This document shows, one piece after another, positions 9,941-59,001 of a stretch of 64,000 bases of DNA; the stretch's first letter is position 1; every line of letters begins with the position of its first letter. Location: the NCBI GenBank assembly GCA_019637675.1, contig JAHBVE010000002.1, positions 207,797 through 271,796 on the forward strand, written 5' to 3'. Origin of the DNA: Anaerolineales bacterium (GTDB lineage Bacteria; Chloroflexota; Anaerolineae; Anaerolineales; UBA11579). A program made the translations under genes and the position numbers. The notes beneath the pieces were generated by a model that worked only from the letters and a program-made list of their open reading frames with translations, ran no database searches and was not told the origin of the DNA.

Positions 9941-10012
9941 GCGGGTGTCGCCAAGTGGTAAGGCACTTGCTTCCCAAGCAAGCATTCGTGGGTTCGAATC
10001 CCATCACCCGCT
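9941..10012 (+). tRNA. tRNA-Gly (anticodon CCC)
   Basis: Cloverleaf folded by hand. Acceptor GCGGGTG/CACCCGC, anticodon stem CTTGC/GCAAG with loop TTCCCAA, T-arm GTGGG-TTCGAAT-CCCAT, discriminator T. No encoded CCA. Confidence 0.92.
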
Positions 10013-10063
10013 CTAGTCTGCAATTTTGTGCAACCAGTCCCGCGTTTGCGGGTTATAACCTCC

Positions 10064-11539
10064 ATGCTGAAAGAACGCCGAGCCAAGATCGTTGCTACGC
10101 TGGGGCCATCCAGCCAGGATAGTGCCACGCTGGAGCGCATGATCGCTGCCGGCATGAGCGTAGCGCGCCTCAATTTCTCACACGGAACCCATGCCGAATA
10201 CGCTCAGCTGATCCAGCGAGTACGCGAGGCGGCCGAGAAGCTGGATGCCCCAGTGGCTATTTTGCAAGATCTGCAAGGCCCAAAGATCCGCGTTGGAGAC
10301 CTGGCGAACGGCAGCGTCATCCTCACCCGGGGTGACTGGATCACGCTCAGCACGATTGACGATAGCAACGGGGCCATCCCTGTAGATTTTGCCGACCTAC
10401 CCCGCTTTATAAAAAAAGGTGGGCGCATTCTGCTTGACGATGGCAGGCTGGAGCTGCGCGCCGGCGATGTGACCGATACCACCATTCAAGCAGAAGTCAT
10501 CATCGGCGGCACGCTCAAGTCAAACAAGGGCATCAACTTGCCGGGCGCCTATATTGATGTGCCCGGCCTAACCGCGAAGGATGAACAAGACTTGGCCAAG
10601 GGGCTGGAGCTGGGCGTCGACATGGTGGCGATCTCATTCGTGCGCACAGCTGAAGATGTAAACCGTGTCCGCGCTTTCATCAACCAGCACGCGCCAGCTC
10701 CTGACCGGATGGATGTGCCCATCATCGCCAAACTCGAACGCAGCGAAGCCCTGGAGAACCTGACAGAGATCGTGGCCGCCGCCAATGGCGTGATGGTGGC
10801 ACGCGGCGACCTGGGCGTAGAATTGCCGCCTGAGTATGTGCCAATCGCACAGAAGCAGATCATTGACGCGGCTAACCAAGCTGGCAAGATCGTGATCACC
10901 GCTACTCAGATGCTGGAGTCGATGATCTTGAATCCGCGCCCTACCCGCGCGGAAGCATCAGACGTGGCCAATGCCATCTTTGACGGCACGGATGCGGTGA
11001 TGCTCTCCGGTGAGACCGCCATGGGCAGCTACCCAGTTGAGACGGTGCGCATGATGGAAGCCATCATCCACGAGTCTGAGCTGCACCAATACAAATGGGG
11101 CCACTGGAAGGGCAGCGAGCCATCCTTGGAGCGCGAAGATGCGATCTCGATCACACGCGCGGCGCGTGAACTGGCGCAAGACGTGAATGTGGCTGCGATC
11201 ACAGTCTTCACCGAGTCCGGCCGCACCGCCTTGCTAATGTCCAAGGCCTTCCCGCGCGTTCCCATTCTGGCTTTGACTCCGGAGCATAAGACCTATAATC
11301 GCATGGCAGTCTACGCGGGCGTGCTTCCGATCATGGTAGCCCTCTCTCACAGCATTGACGAAATGCTGGAGAGCATTGAGATCAACACGCTGGGGCTACA
11401 TGGCTTGAAGCCCGGCCAGAAGGTAGTGGTAATCTCCGGCTACCCGATTGGAGACATGCGCCCTCCCAACCTGGTGATGCTTCATACATTGGGGCAGGAC
11501 CGCAATAAGCTGTACAAGCGTGAACTGTCGACAAGATAA
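10064..11539 (+). CDS. pyk: Pyruvate kinase
   Basis: ORF 10028..11539. Start set to ATG 10064 (MLKERRAKIVATLGPSS). Motifs ARLNFSHG, MVARGDLGVE and TQMLESM are present. Confidence 0.9.
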   Translation: MLKERRAKIVATLGPSSQDSATLERMIAAGMSVARLNFSHGTHAEYAQLIQRVREAAEKLDAPVAILQDLQGPKIRVGDLANGSVILTRGDWITLSTIDDSNGAIPVDFADLPRFIKKGGRILLDDGRLELRAGDVTDTTIQAEVIIGGTLKSNKGINLPGAYIDVPGLTAKDEQDLAKGLELGVDMVAISFVRTAEDVNRVRAFINQHAPAPDRMDVPIIAKLERSEALENLTEIVAAANGVMVARGDLGVELPPEYVPIAQKQIIDAANQAGKIVITATQMLESMILNPRPTRAEASDVANAIFDGTDAVMLSGETAMGSYPVETVRMMEAIIHESELHQYKWGHWKGSEPSLEREDAISITRAARELAQDVNVAAITVFTESGRTALLMSKAFPRVPILALTPEHKTYNRMAVYAGVLPIMVALSHSIDEMLESIEINTLGLHGLKPGQKVVVISGYPIGDMRPPNLVMLHTLGQDRNKLYKRELSTR

Positions 11540-11540
11540 T

Positions 11541-11568
11541 AAAAAGCCCTGGTTGCCAGGGCTTTTTT
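11541..11568. terminator. Bidirectional rho-independent terminator between convergent pyk and the 11570..12712 gene
   Basis: AAAAAGCCCTGG-TTG-CCAGGGCTTTTTT. Confidence 0.8.
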
Positions 11569-11569
11569 C

Positions 11570-12712
11570 TTACCAGCCAATTCGTTTGCGGTTGATCGGG
11601 ATGCCGGGCGAGGCCAATCGTTGGGACAAAGCGTAGCCAGCATACGCTAACGCGCCACCAATTGCCATCACGATCAAACCCTGCAACATTAGTGGCCCAC
11701 TGACGAAATCGAGCGCTCCACCAGCAATCGCGCTTCCCAAGGCTGCTGCAGCACCGCCCTCTTGCAGGAATGGTCCGGCAAACAAAGCATCCACAAACTG
11801 TAATGAGAAAACTTCAAGCCCAAGGCCAAAGATAAAGGTTATAAGGCCAGCGAACAGAAGCGGGCCGCCGAACCATGCTAATGCTCGGCGCCAGTTTTGA
11901 GTTGCCAGCAGGGCGCCTAGCAAGCCGATCCCCACGACTGCCAGCCAGCCCCACAGCAGCACACGGCGTAGTTGCACCAGGCTATCCTTCAACTCGGCCA
12001 GCTCTTCAGGCGCCCCAGCCAACTGGCCCAACGCGCCCACATCCACTGTGGAGGGCGCCTGGCTCAGGCTCACTTCGAAAATGGCGTCGGCGTTATCGAT
12101 CAGGGCCGAATAGACCGGCTCCGGTGGACGGCAACCACTGATCTGGCCTAACAGAGTTTCAAACGACTGCAACGCTCCCAGCACCATGCTAGCCACCTGG
12201 CTGCCACTACATTCCGGTAGGGCATCCATCACAACCCCCAACACAGGCCCAGCATTCTCCTGCACATTGGTCTTCCAGCCGTCGAGTTCGACCTGAATTT
12301 CTGGCAAGGGAGCGTCGCCGTCCAGCCATTCGGTGTAGCCGTTGACCACATCATCTACCGTGTTTTCCACCAAGTGCGTCGGCATGGTAAGCGCGGTGAT
12401 CGTGCGCCAATCATCTTCCGATAACTCAGAAAGTGTATTGCGTACGAACGCGCCAGTCAGCGTGTCCTGCCCATCTTCGGACATAAACACTTGCCGGGTG
12501 AGCTGCTGCGCTAATGCTGAAGCCATCTGCCCGCTGAGCAAATGTTCTCTCACCATGGTTTTGGTTGCTTCCGCGTCAAATACGAGCGTGCTGAGCTCAC
12601 GAAAAGCCAAACTTACAGGAAGGAGCAAAACAAGGACTGCAAGGGCGATCAAGCCAAGGGGACGCAAGATGAATTGTCGCAAGAAACACTGCCTCCACCA
12701 GCAGGCGGCCAA
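11570..12712 (-). CDS. Hypothetical membrane protein (N-terminal TM, ~220-aa acidic extracytoplasmic domain, C-terminal TM bundle)
   Basis: 380-aa ORF with coding-like composition. It is the last gene of a five-gene minus-strand run. No motif recognised. Confidence 0.6.
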   Translation of the reverse strand: MAACWWRQCFLRQFILRPLGLIALAVLVLLLPVSLAFRELSTLVFDAEATKTMVREHLLSGQMASALAQQLTRQVFMSEDGQDTLTGAFVRNTLSELSEDDWRTITALTMPTHLVENTVDDVVNGYTEWLDGDAPLPEIQVELDGWKTNVQENAGPVLGVVMDALPECSGSQVASMVLGALQSFETLLGQISGCRPPEPVYSALIDNADAIFEVSLSQAPSTVDVGALGQLAGAPEELAELKDSLVQLRRVLLWGWLAVVGIGLLGALLATQNWRRALAWFGGPLLFAGLITFIFGLGLEVFSLQFVDALFAGPFLQEGGAAAALGSAIAGGALDFVSGPLMLQGLIVMAIGGALAYAGYALSQRLASPGIPINRKRIGW

Positions 12713-39891: not shown

Positions 39892-39982
39892 CCCCCTCAC
39901 CCATTGGTTTGCGTCCTTCGCTTAACTTCTATCTGCCCTCTCCCCATGGGAGAGGGCGCGAGCGAAGCGAGCGGGTGAGGGG
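39892..39982. repeat. Nested GC-rich inverted repeat of about 90 nt downstream of gltX
   Basis: Outer arms CCCCTCACCC (39893-39902) and GGGTGAGGGG (39973-39982). Middle arms CTTCGCT (39916-39922) and AGCGAAG (39961-39967). Inner hairpin CCCTCTCCC-CAT-GGGAGAGGG (39936-39956). Confidence 0.6.
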
Positions 39983-39985
39983 CCT

Positions 39986-39991
39986 TATAAT
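39986..39991 (+). promoter_or_regulatory. TATAAT hexamer 7 nt before the lipoprotein ATG
   Basis: TATAAT, then CACTCGC, then ATG 39999. No SD. Leaderless geometry. Confidence 0.4.
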
Positions 39992-39998
39992 CACTCGC

Positions 39999-41099
39999 AT
40001 GAATACAACAAAGGTGGGTTATGTACTAGCCCTGCTCCTGCTCCCCCTGCTTGCCGCCTGCAGCCCGGCGACCAGCGAACCAGCCACCACAGCTACCGAA
40101 GCCGCCACCGCCGCGCCGCCAACGGCCATTTTTACGCCTGAACCAACCGCTGCACCGACTGAGATCCCTCTCCTGGAGGTTACGTTTGAGCAGCTGTCCC
40201 AGATGGATCGCAGTCTCGGGAGTTTTACACAAGACGATGCAGGCAACCTGCTCTATAGCTCACCGCTTCAGAGCGCGGTGGGTAAGAATGTTGAATTTAT
40301 TCAAGAAGAGCGAACAATTGGCTTGGGTGGTGGTCCGGAAACCTGGTTCTCACCTGCTGAACATCCTAATGCCCCTGCGGTTATTTACGACAGGCTGACC
40401 GACGAATTTAGGCGCGGCCCTTTCGGATACATTGAAATAAATAAGGATGGCTATACTTTCATAAAAAGAGGGGAATACGGTGGAGGCATTTCTACACTTG
40501 ACTTTCTTGTGGGTAAGAAAATCTCTAACAACTTCGTAGAATTGATACAGAAGGATAATGCCACAATGTATGCGGTATCTGTTTTTCCGCAAGAAGAGTT
40601 TTCTCTTGAAAACAAGGATGGGTATTTCTCTCTGCTGGTTGCGACACCAATTGATTCTAGTGGAAGCAGTTACTCTCTAATCTATAGAGTGATACTTTTC
40701 CCATATGAGAAGGATCCTGCGTACAAGGGATACCTGAGCTTGTATAACAATAAAATCCCAGAACAAGGCTTCGCCTTGTCTGAAGATAATGGAATTGAAC
40801 CACTGAGAACGGATGAGGAGTATAGAAGGAAGGCAATTATATACTTCAGAGATACATGGCGAACTGGCTCGCAAAGTCTCGTATATGGCATGAGAGAGGC
40901 TCCATCTAGGGAGGACATTCCAAGAGAGGCTGGTAGTCAGCATTATTTCTTATCTCAATATAGGCTCTCTTACGATAAGTCAGAACAGATGGATATCTTA
41001 TTCAGGATACTTGAGTCTGGCGCCCTGCCTGAAGATTTGACAAAAGTTGGAGAGAGCTTGAAACTCTTTGGGCTAGCAGCGTGGTACTATGATGAATGA
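39999..41099 (+). CDS. Hypothetical lipoprotein
   Basis: ORF 39909..41099. Start at ATG 39999 (MNTTKVGYVLALLLLPLLAAC lipobox). An Ala/Thr/Pro linker is followed by an AT-rich body with no recognised motif. Confidence 0.65.
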   Translation: MNTTKVGYVLALLLLPLLAACSPATSEPATTATEAATAAPPTAIFTPEPTAAPTEIPLLEVTFEQLSQMDRSLGSFTQDDAGNLLYSSPLQSAVGKNVEFIQEERTIGLGGGPETWFSPAEHPNAPAVIYDRLTDEFRRGPFGYIEINKDGYTFIKRGEYGGGISTLDFLVGKKISNNFVELIQKDNATMYAVSVFPQEEFSLENKDGYFSLLVATPIDSSGSSYSLIYRVILFPYEKDPAYKGYLSLYNNKIPEQGFALSEDNGIEPLRTDEEYRRKAIIYFRDTWRTGSQSLVYGMREAPSREDIPREAGSQHYFLSQYRLSYDKSEQMDILFRILESGALPEDLTKVGESLKLFGLAAWYYDE

Positions 41100-41147
41100 A
41101 GGGATATTTGTTGTAGACTGTTGAGAATCTTAGGTAAACCAATAAGT

Positions 41148-41177
41148 AAAGAGCGGGCCATCTGGCCCGCTCTTTTT
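41148..41177. terminator. Bidirectional rho-independent terminator (lipoprotein / SDR convergent)
   Basis: AAAGAGCGGGCC-ATCT-GGCCCGCTCTTTTT. Confidence 0.8.
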
Positions 41178-41199
41178 ATATAATGACTCCAAAATCAGC

Positions 41200-41898
41200 C
41201 TACCACCAACCCCCGTCCACATCCAAGTTCACGCCGTTGACGCCCTTATTCTCGAGCAGGAAGATGGCTGCGTCGGTCACGTCCTTGATTGTCACCAGCT
41301 GCTTGGTCAGCGTGCGGGCGGCCAGCGTTTCCAGCACGCCGGCCGGCTTGTCGGCCCAATACGGGGTCTCGCCCACCACGCCAGGGTGGATGGCGTTGAT
41401 GCGCAGCGGGGACAGCTCAACTGACATGGCGCGCACCAGCGTGCTTACGCCGCCGTTGATGGTCGTCACTGTGGCCGAGCCCGGGTACGGGCGCTCCTTG
41501 GCCATGCCGCCGTACAACAGCACCGCGCCGTCGGCGCGCATCTCGGGCAGCAGGGCGTGCACCACTTCCGGGTAGCCTACCAGCTTAAGGGTCACCAACT
41601 CGACCGCCTGGTCAATGTCATAGGTCTTGACGCTGTTCTCGTCGCGCGCGATCGAAACCAGCACCAGGTATTGCACATCCTTCACGCCGGCCAGCGCCTT
41701 GCCGATCTCCTTGGGCTTGCTCAGGTCAAAGTTGATGCCCACCGCGCCATTGCCGATCTCCTCGGCCACCTTCTGGGCGCGGCCGGCCTCGCGGCCGGTC
41801 ACCACCACGGGGTGGCCCTTGCCGGCGTAATGCACGGCCACGGCCTTGCCCAGTTCAGACGTGCCGCCAACAACAACCACAGTGCCTTTATCAGCCAT
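41200..41898 (-). CDS. SDR-family oxidoreductase
   Basis: 232 aa. Rossmann motif VVVGGTSELGKAV, plus NAIHPGVV. Confidence 0.75.
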   Translation of the reverse strand: MADKGTVVVVGGTSELGKAVAVHYAGKGHPVVVTGREAGRAQKVAEEIGNGAVGINFDLSKPKEIGKALAGVKDVQYLVLVSIARDENSVKTYDIDQAVELVTLKLVGYPEVVHALLPEMRADGAVLLYGGMAKERPYPGSATVTTINGGVSTLVRAMSVELSPLRINAIHPGVVGETPYWADKPAGVLETLAARTLTKQLVTIKDVTDAAIFLLENKGVNGVNLDVDGGWW

Positions 41899-41918: not shown

Positions 41919-42824
41919 CTATTTCTCGCTCTTGAGCTGCTCTTCAAAATAATCCCAGTCGCGGCCGAAGCGGTAGGCATGCCGCGAGGGGGATTGCGGC
42001 GCCGAGGTTTCCAGCCACTGCACCGTGGTATTCGTCTTGTTCTTGAAACCGTGCACGCAGCCCACACCCGCCCAGGCCACATCGCCGGGCTTCAGGGTAA
42101 AGGTCTGGTTGTCGAACCAGGCCTCCACCTCGCCATTGAGGATCATGTAGGTTTCCTCGAACGGGTGATCGTGGCTGCCGGCGCCGCCGCCGGGGATGTA
42201 CTTGACCATGAACATGGTATGCAAATGGGCGCCCAGGTCGCTGTCCACCATCATCTTGACGGTGATGCCGGTGTACACCAGCAGCGCCGTGCGCATGCTG
42301 CCGGAAACCGCCAGCAGCTCCTGCGACTGCTTGCCCGGGTCCATATGCTCGTCAGTGATATTGCCGAAGAAGCGCGTGCGCGTGTCACGCGGGTTGACCC
42401 GGATCGGCTCACCCACCTGGGCCACCCGCCCCTTGACCGGGAACACATCGCCGTCCTTCCACAGCCGCGGCTGCGGGGCCAGCATCTCGACCCAGCGCAC
42501 CTTGCTGGCGCCGCGGTTCTTGTAACCGTGCGCCGCGCCCACATGCATCAGGCCGTAGTCGCCCTTCTCCAAGGCGAACGCGCCGTCGCCCGTCTCGCAG
42601 ATCAGCTCCCCGTCCAATACATATACGCTCTCTTCGAACGTGTGCAGATGCGTGTCCACCTGGCCGCCGGGCTCCAGCTCACAAATATTGAACTCCTGGT
42701 GCACCGAGCCCGACTCGCCGTTCACAATAGACCAGCGGCTGAACCCCTTGCTGATGCCTTCAAAGGCTTTGGGCAGCATAAACTCGGCCTGGTCTGCCGT
42801 GCGTACTAAGAAGCGTTCCTTCAT
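41919..42824 (-). CDS. Bicupin metalloprotein (paralogue of 56793..57641)
   Basis: ORF 41919..42956. Start at ATG 42824 (AGGAGA SD). The two cupin motif sets are GGQVDTHLHTFEESVYVLDG...GAAHGYKN and GAGSHDHPFEETYMILNG...GCVHGFKN. Confidence 0.75.
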   Translation of the reverse strand: MKERFLVRTADQAEFMLPKAFEGISKGFSRWSIVNGESGSVHQEFNICELEPGGQVDTHLHTFEESVYVLDGELICETGDGAFALEKGDYGLMHVGAAHGYKNRGASKVRWVEMLAPQPRLWKDGDVFPVKGRVAQVGEPIRVNPRDTRTRFFGNITDEHMDPGKQSQELLAVSGSMRTALLVYTGITVKMMVDSDLGAHLHTMFMVKYIPGGGAGSHDHPFEETYMILNGEVEAWFDNQTFTLKPGDVAWAGVGCVHGFKNKTNTTVQWLETSAPQSPSRHAYRFGRDWDYFEEQLKSEK

Positions 42825-42867: not shown

Positions 42868-45321
42868 CTAGATGGCGGGCAATTTGAAGCGAGAGCGGCG
42901 CAGCACGTAATCACGCGCGTCGTAGACCATATTCTTGACCGCGTTGAGGTCCACATTCACCAATTGGCCGCCGCGCTTGAGGATCTTGCCGGCCACCATC
43001 ACGGTGTCCACGTTGCTGGTGTCCATACCCCAAACCACCGCCGCCGCCGGATCATTGATGGGCGTGACGTTGATCTTGTTGGTGGTCAGCATCAGGATGT
43101 CGGCATCCTTGCCGGGGGTCAGCGTACCGATCTTATGGTCCAGGCCGTTGGCGCGTGCGCCTTCGATGGTGGCGTACTCCAGCACCTCCTGATCCGTGAT
43201 CAGGTTGGATTTGACATCTTCGCCCGCCAGGCGGCGCTCATGGAGCAGGCTATGCTGCAACGAAATGACCGAGCGCATCTGCGTGAACATATCGCCCGGT
43301 ACGTTGGTCTCCACGTCCACGCTCAGGCTGGGCTTGAGCCCGCGGTCGAGGAACTTTTGCGTGGGCGGCATGCCGTGGCCCATCATCATCTCCACCGGCG
43401 CGGCCAGCGAGACCGAGCCGCCCGAATCGACGATCATCTGGATCTCGGTGTCGTTGAGCGTAGTGCAGTGAATGTAGGTGGTGTCCGGCCCCATCAGCTC
43501 TGGCCCCTTGCGGCCAAACTCCTCCACCTTGCGGCGTTGGCCGAATGTGCCAACGCCGACGTGGGTGGTGATGCGGGCGTCCACCGAGCGCGCCATGTTC
43601 CAATGCGAGCGAGTAATCTCAAAGTCAGTGAACTCCGGCCCGGCCGCCGCCAGCGCATAGGTCAGCAGTTGGTCCTTGCTGGTGAAGTGCGCCCGCGCCG
43701 CCCGCACGAACCAGCCGGGCTGCTTGGGCTCATACTTACCCCACCACGGGAAGCCGTAGGCGAACACGCCGCGCATATTGGAATCGCGCAGGGCCTGCAC
43801 CACCGCGTCGGTGTGCTCCGGCGAAGCCTGAATATGCGACCAGTCGAGTAGCGTAGTGATGCCGGCGTCAATAGCGCCGAAGGCGCTCACGATGTTGCCG
43901 GCGTAGGCGTCTTGCGGGCGGTACGCGCGGCCCAGGCGGCCCAGCACGAAGGTGATATAGCTGCTGCGGCCTTCCAGCGGCACATCCGTGCCGATGTTGC
44001 GCAACAGGCCTTCCCAAATATGGCGGTGCGTATCCACAAACCCAGGCATCACGATCATGCCCTTGGCATTCACCACCTGAGTGGTGCCGTTGGCCTGGAT
44101 ATTCTCGCCCACCTGCACGATCTTGCTGCCCTCGATGAGCACATCGCCGATAAGCAACGTGCCGATCTTCGGATCGAGCGAGATCACGGTGCCGCCTTTG
44201 AGCAGCATTTGCTGGCCGGGCTGCAAGCCGCTTTCTACTGTGGCGGGCGGCTCAACGAATACATTGGCCAGCGCATAGTCCTTGTTACGTTCACGGCGGG
44301 CCGTGAAGACGCGGCGCAGCTTCTTCCAGTTCTCCTTGATAAGCATGCGCAGGTCGTGCACTTGATACAGCACCAGACCAATAATGGTCAGGCCGCCCAT
44401 CACGATCGGGTCATTCAGCCAGCTGCTAGTGATGATGCGCAGTGAGAACATGTTGCTGATCAGCGCCAGGAACAGGCTCACCGCCAGCGCGCCGGTGAAG
44501 TGGCCCACGCCGCCGGCCAGGCTGGTGCCGCCCAAGCCGGCCGCGGCAATGCTGGTGAGCGCGAAGGTGCTGCCCGCACGGGAGTCACCCACGCCCACTT
44601 GCACCGCCAAAAAGAACGAGGCCACTGCGGCCAGCAAGCCCGAGAGCACCAGACCGCGCACCTGCACCCACTTGGTGCGGATGCCCAGGCGGCGGCCGGA
44701 GCGCACGTCATGCCCGGTGGCACGCACACGCAGGCCGCCGGCGGAGCGGCGCAGCCAGATATCCCACAAAATGGCCACGACCAGCACAACAATGAAGGCG
44801 ACCGGCACCATGCCCACTTTTGTGCGCAGGGCCGCCAGCAGCGAGCTGTTGATCGAGCCGGAGGCCACCGGGCGCAGTACCAGGGCTACGCCCTCCAGAA
44901 TGCTAAGGGTGGCCAGCGTGGCAATGATCGAGGGCAGCTTGACCCAGCGCACCAACAGCGCATTCAACAGGCCCACCAGCACACCGCCCAGCAGGATCAG
45001 ACCGGCGCCGATCATCACGGCTTGCGGAGTGGCGTCATTGGTAATGATGAACGAGGCCGCCACGATGCTGAACGACATCACGGCGCCGACAGAAATATCC
45101 AGATAGCCCACTAGCATGGCGTTCACCTGGGCCATGGCAACGATCGCCAACGGCAGGGTGGCCTGCAGCAGGTTGCTCAGGTTGTATTCGGAAAGAAACG
45201 CGCTGCTCTTGTTACCCGAATATGCGCCCAGCGTATAGATCATGAGCAGGAGCAGCATCAGGGGATACCACTCCTGGATGCGGATGGCGGCCTTCTTGAG
45301 CCGCTCCTTGTTCCGGTTCAT
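42868..45321 (-). CDS. Fusion protein: CUT2-type (RbsC/AraH-like) ABC permease (aa 1-~330) fused to a TRZ/ATZ-type amidohydrolase (aa ~375-817)
   Basis: A single uninterrupted 817-aa ORF. The N-terminal part is a polytopic permease (LLQATLPLAIVAMAQVNAMLVGYLDISVGAVMSF...). A ~45-aa basic linker (LIKENWKKLRRVFTARRERNKDY) follows. The amidohydrolase part has MPGFVDTHRHIWEG (HxH) and IGTLTPGKDADILML. Confidence 0.8.
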   Translation of the reverse strand: MNRNKERLKKAAIRIQEWYPLMLLLLMIYTLGAYSGNKSSAFLSEYNLSNLLQATLPLAIVAMAQVNAMLVGYLDISVGAVMSFSIVAASFIITNDATPQAVMIGAGLILLGGVLVGLLNALLVRWVKLPSIIATLATLSILEGVALVLRPVASGSINSSLLAALRTKVGMVPVAFIVVLVVAILWDIWLRRSAGGLRVRATGHDVRSGRRLGIRTKWVQVRGLVLSGLLAAVASFFLAVQVGVGDSRAGSTFALTSIAAAGLGGTSLAGGVGHFTGALAVSLFLALISNMFSLRIITSSWLNDPIVMGGLTIIGLVLYQVHDLRMLIKENWKKLRRVFTARRERNKDYALANVFVEPPATVESGLQPGQQMLLKGGTVISLDPKIGTLLIGDVLIEGSKIVQVGENIQANGTTQVVNAKGMIVMPGFVDTHRHIWEGLLRNIGTDVPLEGRSSYITFVLGRLGRAYRPQDAYAGNIVSAFGAIDAGITTLLDWSHIQASPEHTDAVVQALRDSNMRGVFAYGFPWWGKYEPKQPGWFVRAARAHFTSKDQLLTYALAAAGPEFTDFEITRSHWNMARSVDARITTHVGVGTFGQRRKVEEFGRKGPELMGPDTTYIHCTTLNDTEIQMIVDSGGSVSLAAPVEMMMGHGMPPTQKFLDRGLKPSLSVDVETNVPGDMFTQMRSVISLQHSLLHERRLAGEDVKSNLITDQEVLEYATIEGARANGLDHKIGTLTPGKDADILMLTTNKINVTPINDPAAAVVWGMDTSNVDTVMVAGKILKRGGQLVNVDLNAVKNMVYDARDYVLRRSRFKLPAI

Positions 45322-50997: not shown

Positions 50998-52488
50998 CTA
51001 CTCCCGATTGTTGAATGTAATTAGCTTCAGCTCCGTCATCTCTTCAATGGCATAGCGCAAACCTTCGCGGCCGAAGCCAGACTGCTTTACGCCGCCATAC
51101 GGCATGTGGTCGATCCGGAAAGTCGAAACATCGTTCACCATCAAGCCCCCGACCTCGATCTCCTCAAAAGCCTTATTGACAATGTTCATATCCTTGGTGA
51201 AGATGCCGGCTTGCAGGCCAAAGTCTGACGCGCCCACCGAGTGGATTGCCTGATCCACATCTGTGTAATGGAACAGACCTACCAGCGGGCCAAACACCTC
51301 CTGGCAGGAGACGTTCATGTCTTCCTGCAGCGAAGCCATCACTGTCGGCTCATACAGGTTGCCATCGCGCTTGCCGCCCGCCAGCACCTCGGCGCCGGAG
51401 GCCTTGGCCTCAGCGACCCATTCCTCGATGCGGTCGGCTGCCCCGCTATCGATCACGGGGCCAACATCGGTTTTCTCGTCCAGCGGATCGCCAACCACCA
51501 GCGCCTTGACGCGCGGGATCAGGTCATCCACAAAGTCCTCATAGATCTTGGCCGAGGCGTACACGCGTTGTACCGAGATACACGACTGGCCAGCATATGA
51601 GAAGCCGCCCCAGGCCACACGCTCGGCGGCGTACTTGACATCCGCATCTTCGTGCACGATGACGCCGGCGTTGCCGCCCAGCTCCAGCGTGACGCGCTTC
51701 ATGCCAGCCTTGCCCTTCAGGCTCCAGCCAACGGCCGGGCTGCCCGTAAAGGTCAGCAGCTTGATGCGCGGGTCTTCGATCAGCGGGGCAGCATCCTTGG
51801 TGGCCGAGGTCACGACGGAATACCCGCCATCCGGCCAACCGGCCTCCTGGATGATCTCGCCCAGTTTGAGGGCGCTCACCGGGGTGGCGCTGGCCGGGCG
51901 CAGCACGATGGGATTGCCGGCTGCCATGGCGGGCGCCACCTTGTGCGCCACCAGGTTCAGCGGGAAGTTAAACGGGGCAATGCCCGCGATCGGCCCGAGC
52001 GGCACGCGGTGGATGTGGGCCACGCGGTTCTCGGTGCCCGGCAGCCAGTCGAGCGGCACGATCTCGCCATAGTGGCGCTTGGATTCCTCCGCTGCCACCT
52101 GGAAGGTATAGGCGGCCCGGTCGACTTCCAAACGAGCCGTGCGAATCGGCTTGCCGGCCTCCAGCGCGATCGTGCGCGCCAGGTCTTCCCGACGCGCTAG
52201 GATGCCTTCGCTCACCTTCATGAGCACATCGGCCTTCTTCCACGAGGGCAGCTTGCGGGTCACTTCAAAGACACGGGTCGCGTCCGCAATGGCCTGCTCG
52301 ATCTCTTTGGGGCCGGCGCGGTGCACTACGGCTACCAGCGCGTCGTTATAGGGACTGCGCACTTCAATAGCGTCACCCGTCTTGACCCACTGGCCGTTCA
52401 GCAATGCGCCATATTCGCCTAACTCGGATGTGCCGCCGCTGGCTTTGCGAGCTTCAGACCCGCGCAACCGCTTGATCTCTTCTGCCAT
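50998..52488 (-). CDS. NAD(P)-dependent aldehyde dehydrogenase
   Basis: 496 aa. ELGGNA and the catalytic Cys in YAGQSCIS. Confidence 0.88.
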   Translation of the reverse strand: MAEEIKRLRGSEARKASGGTSELGEYGALLNGQWVKTGDAIEVRSPYNDALVAVVHRAGPKEIEQAIADATRVFEVTRKLPSWKKADVLMKVSEGILARREDLARTIALEAGKPIRTARLEVDRAAYTFQVAAEESKRHYGEIVPLDWLPGTENRVAHIHRVPLGPIAGIAPFNFPLNLVAHKVAPAMAAGNPIVLRPASATPVSALKLGEIIQEAGWPDGGYSVVTSATKDAAPLIEDPRIKLLTFTGSPAVGWSLKGKAGMKRVTLELGGNAGVIVHEDADVKYAAERVAWGGFSYAGQSCISVQRVYASAKIYEDFVDDLIPRVKALVVGDPLDEKTDVGPVIDSGAADRIEEWVAEAKASGAEVLAGGKRDGNLYEPTVMASLQEDMNVSCQEVFGPLVGLFHYTDVDQAIHSVGASDFGLQAGIFTKDMNIVNKAFEEIEVGGLMVNDVSTFRIDHMPYGGVKQSGFGREGLRYAIEEMTELKLITFNNRE

Positions 52489-52494
52489 AGGGAA

Positions 52495-53868
52495 CTACTC
52501 CTTGATCTCGGCGGCCTCAATGAGGCCGGCCAGGGTGTCTAAGAATTGGGCGCCGCGCAAACCATCGAGCACGCGATGGTCGCACGATAGGGTCAGTGCC
52601 AACATCGGCCGTACGGCTGGCTGGCCGTCCACCGGAACCACGCGCTCCACAATGCGCCCAACCGCCAGAATGGCGGCGTTGGGCGCATTGACGATAGCGG
52701 TGAAGCTGTCGATGGCATACATGCCGAGGTTGCTGATCGTAAATGTGCCGCCCTGTATATCTGCGGGCAGCAATGACTTGCTGTTGGCCTTATGGACTAG
52801 CTCGGCGCGGCGCACGGCCACGTCTTGCAGGCTCAGTTTGTCGGCATTTGCCACCACGGGCACCACGAGGCCGTCCTCCACCCCCACCGCCAGGCCAATA
52901 TTGATGTGCTCGTTGGGCCAGATGGTACGGCTGCGCCAGGTGGCGTTGACATTGGGGTGTTGCTCCAGCGCCGCAGCGCAGAACTTGACCAGCAGGTCCG
53001 TGAAGGTGATCTTGGCTTCGCTGTTGGCCTGCGCTGTCTTGCGGGCCGCCATCATGTTGCTGGCATCCACCTCGCGGCTCAGCACAAAATGGGGAATGTC
53101 CTGCCAGCTCTCGGTGACGTGCTCGGCCATCACCTTCCACAAGCTGCTCAGCGGCGGGCCGGCGGGCTCTTGAGGAGCCGCGGCGGCTCCATCGCCATTC
53201 AATACATCGATCGCCAGCACTGCCCCTTCCGGCCCGCTGCCGCGCAGCAAGGCCAGATCAATATTCATCTCCTGCGCCAAGCGCTTGGCCTTGGGGGAGG
53301 CTAACACCTTCTCACCCGCTGTGCGCGTCACCGGCGCAAAACCATGTGCCGGAGTGGCTCCGTGCGTGCGGATATATTCGCGCACGTCTTCCTTGCTGAT
53401 GCGCCCGCCAGATGGGCGCACCTGCGCCAAGTCCACACCATGTTCGGCGGCAATTCGGATCGCGATCGGACTGGCGTTGACCACGACCGCGCCAGCCGGC
53501 ACATAGCTCGGCGCAGCCTGCGGGCGGGCCGCCGGAGCGCTGCCCCGGCCAGCTGGGACCGGCTTGGCGGCCGCCGGCGCACTGGGCGGCGGGGCCGAGG
53601 CGGCCTTGAGCGCCGCCAGCAGCTCTTCACGCGGCGGGGCCGGCTCACCCTCGGCCAATATCAGCGCAATCGCCTGCCCCACCGGCACGTCCTGCCCGGC
53701 AGTGGCAATGATATTAGCCAGAACGCCGCTTTCGGTCGCGTCAATCGAAACCGTCACTTTGTCGGTTTCGATCTCCATCAAGGGCTCGCCCTTGGCAACC
53801 ACATCGCCTTCCTTCTTGAACCACGCGAGCAGTTTGCCAGTCTCTTGCGCCATTCCCAGCGCGGGCAT
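52495..53868 (-). CDS. Dihydrolipoamide acyltransferase (E2) of a 2-oxoacid/acetoin-type dehydrogenase complex
   Basis: One lipoyl domain (EIETDKVTV), a peripheral-subunit-binding domain (ASPIAIRIAAEHGVDL) and a catalytic SCDHRVLDG. The real start may be CTG 53886 (see findings). Confidence 0.88.
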   Translation of the reverse strand: MPALGMAQETGKLLAWFKKEGDVVAKGEPLMEIETDKVTVSIDATESGVLANIIATAGQDVPVGQAIALILAEGEPAPPREELLAALKAASAPPPSAPAAAKPVPAGRGSAPAARPQAAPSYVPAGAVVVNASPIAIRIAAEHGVDLAQVRPSGGRISKEDVREYIRTHGATPAHGFAPVTRTAGEKVLASPKAKRLAQEMNIDLALLRGSGPEGAVLAIDVLNGDGAAAAPQEPAGPPLSSLWKVMAEHVTESWQDIPHFVLSREVDASNMMAARKTAQANSEAKITFTDLLVKFCAAALEQHPNVNATWRSRTIWPNEHINIGLAVGVEDGLVVPVVANADKLSLQDVAVRRAELVHKANSKSLLPADIQGGTFTISNLGMYAIDSFTAIVNAPNAAILAVGRIVERVVPVDGQPAVRPMLALTLSCDHRVLDGLRGAQFLDTLAGLIEAAEIKE

Positions 53869-53895
53869 GATGACTTTAGTAGCCAGCCGGGCCTC

Positions 53896-54897
53896 CTAGG
53901 CAGCGCCGCACAGGGTCTTGGCCATCTCGAACACCGTATCCGGCGTCGGGACGGTGAGGTCTTCCAACACCGGCGAGAACGGAATGGGCACGTCCATAGC
54001 GCCCATGCGTTTCACCGGCGCATCCAGACAATAGAAAGCGCCATCGGCGATCACCGAAGCCAGCTCGGCCGTGACGCCATAACGTTCATAGCCTTCATCC
54101 ACCACGATCACGCGGCTGGTCTTCTTGGCTGAGTTGATCAGCGCATCTTTGTCCAACGGGAAGGTGCAGCGCGGGTCGACGATCTCAGCGCTGATGCCGA
54201 TCTCGGCCAGTTTGTCCGCCGCCGCTAACGAGACCTGCACCATGCTGCTGGTAGCCACAATGGTGATGTCGCTGCCCTCGCGCTTCACATCCGCCACACC
54301 TAGCGGGATGATGTATTCCTCTTCAGGCACTTCGCCTTTCAACTGGTACATCATCTTGTCTTCGAAGAAGACCACCGGGTTTTCGTCGCGGATGGCGCTC
54401 TTGAGCAAACCCTTGGCGTCATACGGGGTGGATGGGATGACAACTTTGATACCCGGTACATGGCTGAACCAGGCATGCAGCGACTGCGAGTGCTGGGCCG
54501 CTGAGCGCCGCGTGGCGCCCATCGTTGTACGCAGCACCATGGGCACTTTGAGCTTGCCGCCCGACATGTAGTGGATCTTGGCGGCCTGGTTAACCATCTG
54601 GTCCATGATCAGCGTGCTGAAATCGCCGAACATGATATCCACCACAGGCCGCATGCCAGTCATGGCCGCGCCGACACCCAAGCCGGTAATGCCAGGTTCA
54701 GAAATGGGCGAGTCGATCACACGCTCCGGCCCGAACTCATCCACCAGCCCTTTGAGCACCTTGAAGGCGGTGCCGGCTTCGGCCACGTCCTCGCCCATCA
54801 CATACACAGTCGGGTCGCGGCGCAGCTCTTCGGCCAGGGCTTCTTTAATGGCCTGGCCCATCGTGATCACGCGGCCGTTGCCGTTAGGCGTAGACAT
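53896..54897 (-). CDS. TPP-dependent dehydrogenase E1 beta subunit
   Basis: ORF 53896..54933. Start at ATG 54897 (MSTPNGNGRVITMGQAIKEAL). Transketolase-like pyrimidine-binding and C-terminal domains. Confidence 0.88.
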   Translation of the reverse strand: MSTPNGNGRVITMGQAIKEALAEELRRDPTVYVMGEDVAEAGTAFKVLKGLVDEFGPERVIDSPISEPGITGLGVGAAMTGMRPVVDIMFGDFSTLIMDQMVNQAAKIHYMSGGKLKVPMVLRTTMGATRRSAAQHSQSLHAWFSHVPGIKVVIPSTPYDAKGLLKSAIRDENPVVFFEDKMMYQLKGEVPEEEYIIPLGVADVKREGSDITIVATSSMVQVSLAAADKLAEIGISAEIVDPRCTFPLDKDALINSAKKTSRVIVVDEGYERYGVTAELASVIADGAFYCLDAPVKRMGAMDVPIPFSPVLEDLTVPTPDTVFEMAKTLCGAA

Positions 54898-55903
54898 TCG
54901 TATCCACCTCGCTGGGGTCCGGGTACGGCGCATTCAGGGCGAACTCGGCGCCGCGCGCCACTTCGCTCTTCACATCCGCCTGGATGTGGTCGAGCACGCT
55001 CTGGTCAGACAATTTCTGCCCAATGATCCAGTCCGCCAGGATCGTGATCGGGTCACGCTGCTGCCATTCGAGTTCTTCTTCTTTTGGGCGGTAGTAGGCC
55101 CGATCAATATCACCGACATGGTGACCGTGGTAGCGGTAAGTATTGCACACCAAGAAAGCTGGCCCCTCGCCCTTGCGAGCGCGCTCTACCAGCCGCTTGG
55201 CCACTTCATTCACCACGCGGATGTCCTGGCCGTCGATCTCCTCGGTGTAGATGCCGAAGGCTTCGGCGCGGCCGGTCAGCGTACCCGCGGCGGTCTCGTT
55301 GTAGTGGGTGTACTCGTTGTACATGTTGTTCTCGCACACAAAGATCACCGGCAGCTTCCACAACTGAGCCATGTTCATGGTTTCGTACAGCAAGCCTTGG
55401 CCGAGCGCGCCTTCACCAAAGAAGCACACCGCCACCTGGCCGGTGCCTAACCGCTTGGCGCTGAAGGCCGCCCCGGCGGCGATGCCGGCGCTGCCGCCCA
55501 CGATGGCGTTGGCGCCCAGGTTGCCGTTGGCCTGATCGGCGATGTGCATGGAACCGCCCTTGCCGCCGCAGTAGCCGGCGGCTTTGCCGAGCAGCTCAGC
55601 GAACATGATGTCGACTGCCGCGCCTTTGGCGATGCAATGGCCGTGGCCGCGGTGCGTGCTGGTAATGTAATCGTCTGAGTTGAGCGCTTCGCATACGCCC
55701 ACAGCGATGGCTTCTTCACCAATATACAGGTGCGCCAACCCTGGCATCTTCGCCGAGGTGTAGAGCTCATTTACCTTGTCTTCAAATTCACGGATGCGCA
55801 CCATCTGCTCATACATCTGCAGCAGGTCCTCCACATCCTCTTTGCCAGCCGGCTTGCCCGCAGGCTTGGTGCTCTTGGCCTTGGTGCCTTTTGCTTTCGC
55901 CAT
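54884..55903 (-). CDS. TPP-dependent dehydrogenase E1 alpha subunit
   Basis: 339 aa. TPP motif GEGALGQGLLYETMNMAQLWKLPVIFVCENN. YRYHGHHVGD is also present. Confidence 0.88.
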   Translation of the reverse strand: MAKAKGTKAKSTKPAGKPAGKEDVEDLLQMYEQMVRIREFEDKVNELYTSAKMPGLAHLYIGEEAIAVGVCEALNSDDYITSTHRGHGHCIAKGAAVDIMFAELLGKAAGYCGGKGGSMHIADQANGNLGANAIVGGSAGIAAGAAFSAKRLGTGQVAVCFFGEGALGQGLLYETMNMAQLWKLPVIFVCENNMYNEYTHYNETAAGTLTGRAEAFGIYTEEIDGQDIRVVNEVAKRLVERARKGEGPAFLVCNTYRYHGHHVGDIDRAYYRPKEEELEWQQRDPITILADWIIGQKLSDQSVLDHIQADVKSEVARGAEFALNAPYPDPSEVDTNVYA

Positions 55904-56778
55904 TACTTCGCTCCCATGTGCTTCACCGCGTCGATCAAGATCGCAAAGTCTTTCTCGCCCCAGCCTTTTTCTTGAGCAAAGGCCAGCACGCGTTGGGCTG
56001 TCTCGGTTGTCGGTAGCGCTACGCCCAGCTCAGCGCCCAGTTCCAAGGCCAGCTTAATGTCCTTCTGCATCATATCCACTGGATACCAGGCCACATCGGG
56101 CAGGTTCACCAGCTGCGGCGCCTTGTACTTGACTAGCGGCGAGCCGATCACGCTGTTGGTCAGTACTTCGATGGCGGTAGTGCGCGGGATGCCTGCCGCC
56201 TCGGCCAGCAAAATAGACTCGGCCAGCGCCAAGACTTGCACACCTACGCTCAAATTCGTTGCCACCTTCATGGAAACGGCGAGGCCGCTGGCACCGACAT
56301 AGGTCGCCTTGGAGCCGATCGCCAGCAGCACCGGCTCGGCAGCCTTGAAAGCAGCCTCGTCGCCGCCCACCATCATGGTGAGCTGGCCGGCTTCCAAAGT
56401 TGCAATGCTGCCCGAGACCGGGCAGTCCAGCATGGGCGCGCCGGCTGCAGCGGCCTTAGCTGCCAGCTCGCGGCTGGCGGCGGGGCTGACCGTGCTCATC
56501 TCCATCCAGGTCTTGCCCTGGCCGAGCGCAGCCAGCACGCCATCCGGCCCTTCAGCGATCTGGCGCAGCGCAGCCGTGTCGCTGACGATGCTAAAAACGA
56601 TCTCAGACGCTTCGGTCACTGCCCGCGGCGTATCGCCCCAGGCCATGCCAGCATCCAACAAGTCTTGTGCTTTGGCCTTGGTGCGGTTGTAGCCGGTCAC
56701 CTTGTGCCCAGCTGCCATCAGCCGCGTCACCATGCGGCTGCCCATCACCCCTAAGCCAATAAATCCAACATTTGCCAT
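55903..56778 (-). CDS. 3-hydroxyisobutyrate / tartronate-semialdehyde reductase family (HIBADH-like) NAD(P) oxidoreductase
   Basis: 291 aa. Starts MANVGFIGLGVMGSRM. TAATG overlap with the E1 alpha start. Confidence 0.8.
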   Translation of the reverse strand: MANVGFIGLGVMGSRMVTRLMAAGHKVTGYNRTKAKAQDLLDAGMAWGDTPRAVTEASEIVFSIVSDTAALRQIAEGPDGVLAALGQGKTWMEMSTVSPAASRELAAKAAAAGAPMLDCPVSGSIATLEAGQLTMMVGGDEAAFKAAEPVLLAIGSKATYVGASGLAVSMKVATNLSVGVQVLALAESILLAEAAGIPRTTAIEVLTNSVIGSPLVKYKAPQLVNLPDVAWYPVDMMQKDIKLALELGAELGVALPTTETAQRVLAFAQEKGWGEKDFAILIDAVKHMGAK

Positions 56779-56792
56779 CTATCTATCTCCAA

Positions 56793-57641
56793 CTAGCCGG
56801 CGTACTTGCCAGCCCAGTCTCTTTCAAAGCGGAAGGCTTCTTTGGCGGGCGGCAGCGGAGCCTGGGTTTCGATCCAGCGAACCGGCTCGTCACCTACCTG
56901 CTCAAAGCTGTGAATGCAGCCCACACTGGTCCAGATCAGATCGCTCGGCCCCAGTTCATAGGTCTTGCCGTCCGCGATCGCCTTCACGCGTCCACTGACA
57001 ATGTAATACGACTCTTCAAACGTATGGTCATGCGCATCGATCTTGGCGCCTGGCTGGTATTGAATAAGAAACAGCGACTGGTGCGTAGCGCCGGACGAGC
57101 GGTCTACGAACATCTTGATCGCCACACCTGTGGTGGCATTGAAGCCCTCCATCTGGCCGGGTTCGCCAGGCTTGGGCAGTTGCGCCTCGTCGAAGTGGCT
57201 CACCATCGTCTCCGCGGCCTGCGCCGGGTTGGGCGCCTGGCCGCTAGCAGCCAACTCGCCGGGAACGAAGAAAGTGTCGGTTCCATCCGTACGCGGCTGC
57301 GGCGCCTGCATCTCGACCCAGCGGGCCGGCACACTGCCCTTGTTCTGCCAGGCGTGCGCAACACCGGTCGGGATCAGGCCATAGTGGCCCGGCCCCAGTT
57401 CGTAAGCGGCCTCGCCAATCTGGCAGATCAGGCTGCCTTCCAAGATATAGAAGCTCTCTTCGAACGCATGCAGGTGATGGCTGATGTGGCCGCCCGGCTC
57501 CAGCTGGCTGATGCCGGTGCCCATGTGCAACGAGCCCATGCCGGGCTCCACGTAGGTTTTGCGCGCATATCCCGCGCTCTTGCCCTCATAGCCCGCAGGC
57601 ACTGCGCTGGGCAACTGGTCAAGGTGAGTGGTGTGATGCAT
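56793..57641 (-). CDS. Bicupin metalloprotein (paralogue of 41919..42824)
   Basis: ORF 56793..57737. Start at ATG 57641. Motifs GGHISHHLHAFEESFYILEG...GVAHAWQN and AKIDAHDHTFEESYYIVSG...GCIHSFEQ. It shares RWVEMxAPQPR and RFxRDW with the paralogue. Confidence 0.75.
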   Translation of the reverse strand: MHHTTHLDQLPSAVPAGYEGKSAGYARKTYVEPGMGSLHMGTGISQLEPGGHISHHLHAFEESFYILEGSLICQIGEAAYELGPGHYGLIPTGVAHAWQNKGSVPARWVEMQAPQPRTDGTDTFFVPGELAASGQAPNPAQAAETMVSHFDEAQLPKPGEPGQMEGFNATTGVAIKMFVDRSSGATHQSLFLIQYQPGAKIDAHDHTFEESYYIVSGRVKAIADGKTYELGPSDLIWTSVGCIHSFEQVGDEPVRWIETQAPLPPAKEAFRFERDWAGKYAG

Positions 57642-57660
57642 GGCGTTGGCCTGCACTTGC

Positions 57661-59001
57661 CTACTGGTCGTCAGGCAGGCCGGCGCCGCCGTAGTTGACC
57701 CCGGTGTAGTCAAGGTTGCGGTGCGACTGGGTGTCACGCGTGGTGGGCAGCCAGCCGTTGGTGGTGAAGTAGCGCTTGCCCGCCACCATCAACTCCTCGG
57801 CCGGGAAGCGCGTGATCACTTCCACGCCGTCCTTGGTCACCACCATCTGCTCTTCAATGCGGGCAGCCGACCAGCCATCGCTGGCCGGCCAATACGTTTC
57901 GAGGGCGAAGACCATGCCCTCCTCAATTTCCTGCGGGCTGTCGAACGAGACCAGGCGGCTGAACACCGGCTTCTCCCAGATACCTAGACCCACGCCGTGG
58001 CCATATTGCAATGCGAAGCAGGATTCTTCGTTCGGGAAGCCGAACTCTTGCGCCTTGGGCCACAACTTGACCACGTCCGCGGTGGTCACACCGGGGCGGA
58101 TGGCATCGATGGCCGCGTCCAGATAATAGCGACAGCGTTTGTACGCATCCACCTGGGCCTGTGAAGCTGAGCCGATGGCGAAGGTGCGGTAATAGCAGGT
58201 GCGATAGCCCATGTAGGAGTGCAAGATATCGTAGAAGGCCGGGTCGCCTGGGCGCATCACGCGGTCACTAAAGATATGCGGATGCGGGCTGCAGCGCTCG
58301 CCGGAGATGGCGTTGACGCCCTCCACATGCTCAGAACCCAGTTCATACAGCACCTTATTGACCAGTGCTACGGCTTCACTTTCCTTGACGCCGGGCTTCA
58401 TAAAGCGATACAGCTCTTCATAGGCCGCGTCCACCATCATGCAGGCCATGTTGAGCAAGGTGACTTCGTCTTGGGTCTTGATGACGCGCGCATCCAGCAT
58501 TAGCTGCTGGCCGTCGACCACATTGATGCCCTCTTTTTGCAGGGCGAACAGCACGGGCGGCTCAACCATATCCACGCCAACCGGCTCGTTCTGCAGGCCG
58601 CGCTCCTCGAGTTCAATGCGGATCTTGCGGGCCACGTCCTCCGCCCGCATGGCGCCTGGCGGCATGGCGCCGCGCAGGGTGGAAATGCCGGCGCGGGAGC
58701 GTCCCTCGCCCAGCCAGGGGGCGTAGAGTGTGTGGTGCTTGGCCGCTGAGCCAAAATCCCAGTTGATCGGCTCATCATCCTGCGGCAGCAGGCAGAAGCG
58801 CCCCAGCTTATCGATGGCCCAGGTGCCAATGGTGGTATTGGTGATATAGCGAATGTTGTTCATGTCGAAGCACAGCAAAGCGCCGATGTTCGACTCTTTG
58901 AGCTTCGCCTTGATGCGAGCCAGACGTTCCGTGCGCAACCGTTCGAAATCAACACGTTGCTCCCAATCCACACCCATTGTTCCGTACGTTCGCAAATCCA
59001 T
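57661..59001 (-). CDS. M24-family (creatinase/prolidase fold) metallohydrolase, long form
   Basis: 446 aa. N-terminal LLCFDMNNIRYITNTTIG. Pita-bread C-domain with HGVGLGIWE, FALETYW and IEEQMVVT. Confidence 0.75.
   Translation of the reverse strand: MDLRTYGTMGVDWEQRVDFERLRTERLARIKAKLKESNIGALLCFDMNNIRYITNTTIGTWAIDKLGRFCLLPQDDEPINWDFGSAAKHHTLYAPWLGEGRSRAGISTLRGAMPPGAMRAEDVARKIRIELEERGLQNEPVGVDMVEPPVLFALQKEGINVVDGQQLMLDARVIKTQDEVTLLNMACMMVDAAYEELYRFMKPGVKESEAVALVNKVLYELGSEHVEGVNAISGERCSPHPHIFSDRVMRPGDPAFYDILHSYMGYRTCYYRTFAIGSASQAQVDAYKRCRYYLDAAIDAIRPGVTTADVVKLWPKAQEFGFPNEESCFALQYGHGVGLGIWEKPVFSRLVSFDSPQEIEEGMVFALETYWPASDGWSAARIEEQMVVTKDGVEVITRFPAEELMVAGKRYFTTNGWLPTTRDTQSHRNLDYTGVNYGGAGLPDDQ

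Follow-up and report, generated by a model that had tools for sequence, protein, structure and literature searches.

Why should one open reading frame (ORF) encode both a membrane-spanning permease of an ATP-binding cassette (ABC) importer and a full-length amidohydrolase, and is such a union genuine? The question is raised by a 64,000-nucleotide stretch of DNA from an Anaerolineales bacterium of the Chloroflexota (assembly GCA_019637675.1, contig JAHBVE010000002.1, positions 207,797 to 271,796), hereafter the window, in which a single gene joins the two domains through a linker. The ORF list and its translation show this fusion ORF to be uninterrupted from the ATG at 45321 to the stop codon at 42868-42870. 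The N-terminal part of the protein matches the Pfam family BPD_transp_2 (PF02653) over residues 48-314 (1e-21; 77.7 bits against a cutoff of 26.8; profile positions 2-267 of 269), and the C-terminal part matches Amidohydro_1 over residues 423-781 (7e-30), covering the whole profile (1-345). Residues 370-811 match the NCBIfam model NF006056/PRK08204 with 503.4 bits against a cutoff of 391 (profile positions 3-445 of 449), a subfamily that NCBIfam describes as 'hypothetical protein'. A first-pass annotation of the window had called a single 817-residue ORF containing a permease and a full amidohydrolase, and the ORF list, Pfam and NCBIfam agree with it; the two motifs that it quoted, DTHRHIWEG and GKDADILML, begin at residues 430 and 737. 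Two of its descriptions stand only in part. A linker is present, but it is about 51 residues long (320-370) rather than about 45 and is strongly basic only over its first ~25 residues; likewise, the enzyme is related to the TRZ/ATZ type to which it had been assigned, but belongs to the PRK08204 subfamily and lacks the HxxE glutamate (H587-V-G-V590).

The genuineness of the fusion was assessed in proteins and in genomes. Among 5.8 billion protein clusters, 1,686 matched the fusion protein, and the architecture of the best 120 was examined. Both domains are present in all of these best 120 of 1,686 clusters (60-100% identity), and the proteins are 809-842 residues long, bar one partial of 720 residues. 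The clusters stem from NCBI, JGI, ENA and Logan assemblies, and one of them (P0001), which an Anaerolineales metagenome-assembled genome (MAG) at NCBI lists as one annotated protein, is 100% identical to the fusion. When a single genome of each GTDB species was scanned, 79 loci emerged, 68 of which have both domains adjacent. The junction is one continuous frame in 64 of these 68, which are independent species-level assemblies from two phyla. The other four (L061, L063, L064 and L067) carry frame shifts between or within the domains; all are MAGs with 'MFD' isolate names, and our suspicion falls on indels from assembly, not on fission of the gene. The first-pass annotation had proposed asking whether orthologues in related genomes keep the fusion, and had named a stop codon between the domains in such loci as the finding that would overturn its reading. 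Related genomes do keep the fusion, and none of the 68 loci has an in-frame stop between the domains or genuinely encodes permease and amidohydrolase in two successive, separate genes. The fusion is thus real and conserved, and through this conserved covalent bond the enzyme is physically tethered to the permease, the transporter-enzyme association that serves as a criterion for a metabolon.

The linker between the domains is itself conserved in length. Measured from the L[YF]Q at the end of transmembrane helix (TM) 10 to the first strand of the enzyme, its length is 51 residues for 54 of the 59 scorable loci, 55 in the clade of the window and 78 in L074. AlphaFold2 (AF2) predicts that TM10 runs on into a basic helix at about residues 321-342, followed by a Pro-rich segment of variable sequence. 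The first ~25 linker residues form a conserved basic helix, with a mean of 8.4 K+R against 2.4 D+E over the first 30 residues; the later part is variable in sequence, yet Pro and aromatic positions recur. That linker length has stayed fixed although the fusions have diverged to about 55% identity overall argues for a geometric constraint on the linker rather than a free tether.

On which side of the membrane would the enzyme lie? AF2 secondary structure places ten long helices in residues 19-319 of the fusion, and ten transmembrane segments are the commonest predicted topology of CUT2 permeases (PMC3654945). In Type II importers the coupling helix sits between TM6 and TM7 (PMC3971661); in the fusion, a basic coupling loop lies between TM6 and TM7 at residues 193-213, with short helices predicted at 194-212. 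With AF2 helix borders, the predicted cytoplasmic loops contain 22 K/R in 105 residues versus 3 in 49 for the outside loops. The model of the permease domain, with a predicted template modelling score (pTM) of 0.76, resembles BtuC, PsaC and FhuB most closely, at TM-scores of 0.44-0.52 and with E-values that are weak (8e-3 to 0.1). Searches with the fused N-domain, the stand-alone permease of the same operon and an N-domain profile gave zero matches in the 2026 copy of the PDB, so the topology is derived from prediction together with weak BtuC-like folds. The named CUT2 permease equivalogs (LsrC, AlsC, AraH, RbsC and MglC) are likewise not reached, the best being LsrC with 107 bits against a cutoff of 388. 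Since contact with the cytoplasmic ATPase requires the coupling loop to lie inside, and four further helices come after this loop, the amidohydrolase domain is strongly predicted to be cytoplasmic. The claim of the first-pass annotation that the permease ends in the cytoplasm is accordingly supported, at the level of prediction, by the AF2 helices, the K/R counts and the Type II fold matches. Its placing of the enzyme at the exit of the translocation pathway, with substrate channelling, remains conjecture: the full-length AF2 model (mean pLDDT, AF2's per-residue confidence, of 71, falling below 50 over much of residues 557-675) has a pTM of 0.61, which cannot position the enzyme relative to the pore.

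We then compared the C-terminal domain with solved amidohydrolases. The nearest structures by sequence and by fold are AtzA, TrzN, the methylthioadenosine/S-adenosylhomocysteine (MTA/SAH) deaminases, isocytosine deaminase and Tm0936, all at about 20-25% identity. The metal-site residues H432 and H434 (HxH, strand 1), H587 (strand 5), H618 (strand 6) and D669 (strand 8) correspond in the alignment to the ligands of 4f0r and 3hpa and are invariant across 53 aligned fusions. A wider pattern (D430/H432/H434/E437/H496/H587/H618/E644/H649/D669/E671) is shared without change by 68 of 70 fused-like domains. The absence of metal ligands on proper alignment, which the first-pass annotation had regarded as fatal to its reading, was therefore not found, and on these alignments the enzyme looks catalytically competent. 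The HIHE of 4f0r and the HLAE of 3hpa, by contrast, align to H587-V-G-V590, which does not conform to HxxE, and Val occupies the position of the glutamate in 68 of 70 fused-like domains, as it does in 53 of 53 aligned fusions. Scores against named equivalogs are far below cutoff: 155 of 522 bits for 5'-deoxyadenosine deaminase, 151 of 609 for N-ethylammeline chlorohydrolase, 117 of 532 for 8-oxoguanine deaminase and 64 of 375 for guanine deaminase. The earlier suggestion of deamination is thus doubtful, since the proton-shuttle glutamate of HxxE is replaced by Val and the deaminase and chlorohydrolase equivalogs are so distant, and the reaction is probably not a canonical HxxE-dependent deamination.

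The reading that we favour, with a probability of roughly 60%, is that this fixed fusion forms one half of a heterodimeric CUT2-type importer channel and carries, on its ~51-residue linker, a cytoplasmic mononuclear-metal amidohydrolase that performs an early step on the imported compound. In such a system, the binding lipoprotein would capture a nitrogen-containing solute, the two permeases and an ATPase carrying a pair of nucleotide-binding domains (NBDs) would import it, and the tethered hydrolase, held 1:1 at the cytoplasmic face, would carry out an early hydrolytic step. A free paralogous amidohydrolase, bicupins, reductases, an aldehyde dehydrogenase and a pyruvate dehydrogenase (PDH)-like complex would then take the product to small C2/C3 units. 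We infer that the imported compound is what the tethered enzyme works on, and that its closeness to the pump accelerates or shields this step.

The genes that would supply these functions surround the fusion (Table 1). All three operon partners reported by the first-pass annotation, namely the stand-alone permease, the duplicated-NBD ATPase and the binding lipoprotein, are present, and the stop codon of the ATPase gene directly abuts the fusion ATG. The gene order of free amidohydrolase paralog, plain permease, binding protein, ATPase and fusion is conserved: the transporter is complete in 52 of the 54 loci with enough upstream sequence, and in 48 of 51 the gene immediately upstream of the plain permease encodes an amidohydrolase.

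Table 1 Features of the fusion locus in window coordinates.
Feature	Position	Strand	Basis and remarks
Fusion gene (permease + linker + amidohydrolase)	42868..45321	-	Single 817-codon ORF plus stop
Permease domain, aa 1-319	44365..45321	-	Pfam BPD_transp_2, AF2 helices
Linker, aa 320-370	44212..44364	-	AF2 secondary structure
Amidohydrolase domain, aa 371-817, PRK08204 subfamily	42871..44211	-	NCBIfam
HxH metal-binding motif DTHRHIWEG, aa 430-438	44008..44034	-	Translation
ABC ATPase, two NBDs, 522 aa	45322..46890	-	Pfam ABC_tran x2; AraG/XylG/RbsA-like
Substrate-binding lipoprotein, 420 aa	46940..48202	-	Peripla_BP_4, signal peptide, lipobox LAAC
Stand-alone permease, 340 aa	48323..49345	-	BPD_transp_2; 24% identical to fused permease domain
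Free paralogous amidohydrolase, 432 aa	49607..50905	+	PRK08204-like, 366 bits, just under cutoff of 391
Bicupin, probable start M45 of listed ORF	41919..42824	-	Pfam Cupin_2 x2; 43 nt 3' of fusion stop
Short-chain dehydrogenase/reductase (SDR), 232 aa	41200..41898	-	Profile matches
Catabolic block: aldehyde dehydrogenase; PDH-like E2, E1-beta, E1-alpha; tartronate-semialdehyde-reductase-like reductase; second bicupin; M24/creatinase-like hydrolase	50998..59001	-	

The free paralog of the window is 40% identical to the fused domain, has Gln at the position of the H587 ligand and differs at second-shell positions. Because of these differences, the fused and free amidohydrolases probably catalyse different steps. 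The free paralogs of other loci vary widely at metal-ligand and second-shell positions; judged by these residues, free paralogs may serve another step or have partly degenerated. They also vary in orientation, being divergently transcribed in the clade of the window and co-directional with the operon in most loci.

Beyond the transporter, a set of companion genes recurs. Among the 39 fusion loci of at least 20 kb, a bicupin lies inside the locus in 24 and an SDR at least 45% identical to that of the window in 8. Bicupin, M24 hydrolase, E1-alpha, E1-beta and reductase classes likewise flank the fusion in two actinobacterial loci of the Acidimicrobiia (L025 and L054). In the window, the transporter and the companion block together make up a catabolic island of about 18 kb. 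Stand-alone orthologues of the enzyme (57-68% identity; L065, L068, L072 and L073) adjoin a bicupin and/or an SDR gene, with no transporter detected alongside. Since these orthologues keep such neighbours without a transporter, the enzyme belongs to a catabolic module that is independent of the pump. The neighbours match known enzymes at family level, as a lactaldehyde-dehydrogenase-like aldehyde dehydrogenase, PDH-like E1/E2 and a tartronate-semialdehyde-reductase-like reductase, and the best NCBIfam match of the M24 hydrolase is DddP, with 120 bits where the cutoff is 600. Pathways for dimethylsulfoniopropionate (DMSP), ectoine, creatinine, pyrimidines and triazines were considered, and the neighbouring genes supported none of them. 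On the far side of the SDR gene, the GC content falls to 0.41-0.44 at window positions 39909-41250, against about 0.60-0.65 in the operon. This low-GC stretch, which holds a 396-residue ORF (39909..41099, plus strand) with a lipoprotein-like N-terminus and a Thr/Ala/Pro-rich linker adjoining the SDR gene, may be foreign or recently acquired DNA.

Where, and how often, did the fusion arise? Across the 79 loci, fusions occur in Chloroflexota (Anaerolineae, Aggregatilineales) and in Actinomycetota (Acidimicrobiia, Ilumatobacteraceae, Nitriliruptoraceae, Jiangellaceae), with a few fusion-bearing MAGs labelled as other taxa. A HMMER pass over 1.84 billion representatives at 50% identity gave 25,603 relatives, one of which is a full-length two-domain protein (P0121, 822 residues); nearly all of the remaining best matches are stand-alone amidohydrolases of ~450 residues, and a few are permease-only. 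Two further proteins, P0255 (657 residues) and P0263 (1265 residues, in the order permease-ATPase-permease), join an ABC ATPase with this permease type. They may be genuine fusions or gene-call read-throughs and, being ATPase-permease joins, were rejected as relatives of the amidohydrolase fusion.

In a neighbour-joining tree of the enzyme domain, all 63 fused tips fall in one clade, in which the Chloroflexota fusions are basal and the actinobacterial ones nested. Just two tips within this clade are not fused: L060, truncated at the end of its contig, and L062, which reads as a remnant left by a deletion. Sister groups of the clade are stand-alone enzymes, including the free amidohydrolase that heads the operon in several Chloroflexota loci. 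Because the fused tips form one clade with Chloroflexota at its base, the tree is indicative, and only indicative, of a single fusion event, probably in Chloroflexota, with later transfer to Actinomycetota. The position of the sister groups also admits that the fusion possibly arose after duplication of the operon's own enzyme. Between the phyla, the fused enzyme domain is 66-73% identical, against 42-49% for the permease domain. At L062, the ORF at 10234..11700 opens with the tail of TM10 ('MLLGIVLFQIGD'), continues into a basic linker and a full amidohydrolase, and is directly preceded by an N-terminal fragment of a paralogous amidohydrolase (region 10010-11700). This locus seems to be a relic of the fusion from which the plain permease, binding protein, ATPase and most of the fused permease were deleted, or else a misassembled contig.

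Several observations weigh against a tethered enzyme that processes the imported compound. The full-length AF2 model is weak in the catalytic core and too weak for domain docking, so that the arguments above draw on its secondary structure. With the HxxE glutamate missing, relatives do not reveal the chemistry of the fused enzyme, and none of the neighbours profiled in the window reaches an NCBIfam equivalog cutoff. All sources are MAGs or metagenomes, isolates accounting for none of the 79 loci, and the neighbour-joining tree is midpoint-rooted and carries no support values. Finally, ABC importers are already unidirectional, so trapping of the substrate is not obviously needed.

The alternative that survives best accepts the fusion as real but assigns it no kinetic role: it would provide only co-expression, 1:1 stoichiometry or membrane localisation while the substrate diffuses freely. 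This is a possibility to be taken seriously, if one we hold to be well short of probable. It would account for the occurrence of the closest stand-alone orthologues (57-68% identity) without an adjoining transporter, for the survival of the enzyme after deletion of the transporter genes in L062, for the variable sequence of the second half of the linker and for a docking interface that the full-length model does not predict. It does not readily explain why linker length is nearly invariant across two phyla, or why no genuine re-split occurs among the 68 loci. Moreover, the operon retains a second, free amidohydrolase in nearly all loci, so simple co-expression would be possible without a fusion.

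We consider it unlikely that the system operates as an ABC-driven 'group translocator', in which the hydrolase, held in place by the linker of fixed length and perhaps paired with the free paralog, would dock under the inward-facing cavity and receive the substrate by direct hand-over. Catalysis, or occupancy of the enzyme, would then act back on the ATPase cycle by way of TM10, making a single coupled reaction of import and conversion.

It is more doubtful that the amidohydrolase domain serves mainly as a sensor or regulator of the pump, by trans-inhibition, with catalysis secondary or lost. Substrate-binding regulatory domains at the C-termini of MalK, MetN and ModC provide a precedent among ABC importers (PMC3971661, PMC4245157), and a linker of conserved length could pass a conformational change to TM10. 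These known domains, however, are on the NBD, whereas here the domain is on the transmembrane domain (TMD) and has a complete catalytic site; its metal ligands and second-shell residues are all invariant, as in active enzymes, and between phyla it is more conserved than the permease.

An extracytoplasmic enzyme that processes a precursor before uptake is highly improbable. The topology is a predicted one, in a permease family for which no solved structure is detectable by sequence, but much stands against it: the ten TM helices predicted after a basic N-terminus, the coupling loop, likewise basic, which has to touch the cytoplasmic ATPase and has four helices after it, the excess of K/R inside, the strongly basic linker and the BtuC-like fold matches. 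That adjacent genes were joined in the window by a sequencing or assembly error (a lost stop or a frameshift) is effectively ruled out: the window does derive from a MAG and the frame is broken at or near the junction in four related loci, but the same in-frame architecture recurs independently in more than 120 protein clusters from four sources and in 64 species-level genomes, linker length is kept to the residue, and the four breaks are frame shifts, not in-frame stops, all in 'MFD' MAGs.

A pump that carries its own hydrolase, the reading that we prefer, would have implications beyond this locus. The fusion has been kept through divergence to about 55% identity in two phyla, and this persistence suggests that selection favours having the first hydrolytic step located at the pump, which might avoid a toxic or unstable free intermediate, pull on flux or fix the stoichiometry. 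The fusion therefore offers a defined natural system for testing the coupling of transport and metabolism. It also draws attention to the large, uncharacterised PRK08204 subfamily without HxxE, to the catabolic island in environmental Chloroflexota and Actinomycetota, and to a permease family without a sequence-detectable solved structure. Full-text literature searches found no description of a permease-amidohydrolase fusion or of PRK08204, in keeping with the remark of the first-pass annotation that the architecture seemed undescribed. Public annotation labels such proteins 'amidohydrolase family protein' or gives both COG names.

How, then, does the fusion compare with known systems? The transporter shares with CUT2 importers (TC 3.A.1.2) such as RbsABC, AraFGH, LsrACDB and YtfQRT-YjfF a BPD_transp_2 pair with about ten TM helices, a duplicated-NBD ATPase and a Peripla_BP_4 binding protein. 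It differs from them in that one permease bears a 50-kDa C-terminal enzyme, and because its permease, ATPase and binding protein reach no equivalog cutoff, the substrate would not be one of the known sugars. The enzyme shares with TRZ/ATZ and COG0402 proteins (AtzA, 4v1x; TrzN, 3ls9; MTA/SAH deaminase, 4f0r; isocytosine deaminase, 7ww2; Tm0936) an N-terminal beta-sandwich, a TIM barrel and an aligned metal site. It departs from them in its low identity, in the replacement of the HxxE glutamate by Val and in its fusion to a membrane protein.

Accessory domains of ABC importers are known as substrate-binding domains on TMDs (OpuA, GlnPQ) and as regulatory domains on NBDs (MalK, MetN, ModC) (PMC3971661, PMC4245157). 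With these the fusion shares an extra domain carried covalently on a core importer subunit, and the cytoplasmic examples can bind the transported solute. All of these domains are non-catalytic, however, and the cytoplasmic ones are on the NBD, whereas here a complete enzyme is on the TMD. The reviews of ABC importers consulted name substrate-binding domains outside and ATPase-regulating domains inside, and no complete catabolic enzyme on a membrane subunit. Closer in concept are the bacteriocin ABC exporters that contain a C39 peptidase, an enzyme domain fused to the transporter polypeptide that acts on the cargo. Their TMD fold is unrelated, and their enzyme is N-terminal and acts before transport, whereas the present protein belongs to an importer and its enzyme would act after transport. 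Among secondary carriers, SulP-carbonic anhydrase fusions join a transporter to an enzyme. The concept of transporter-enzyme coupling has also been developed for carbonic anhydrase with bicarbonate transporters (PMC3794380). These carbonic anhydrase and SulP cases involve another class of transporter and another enzyme, and for the present fusion the coupling is hypothetical. The architecture described here is thus not categorically new, as it has conceptual relatives in peptidase-containing exporters and in carbonic-anhydrase metabolons and fusions.

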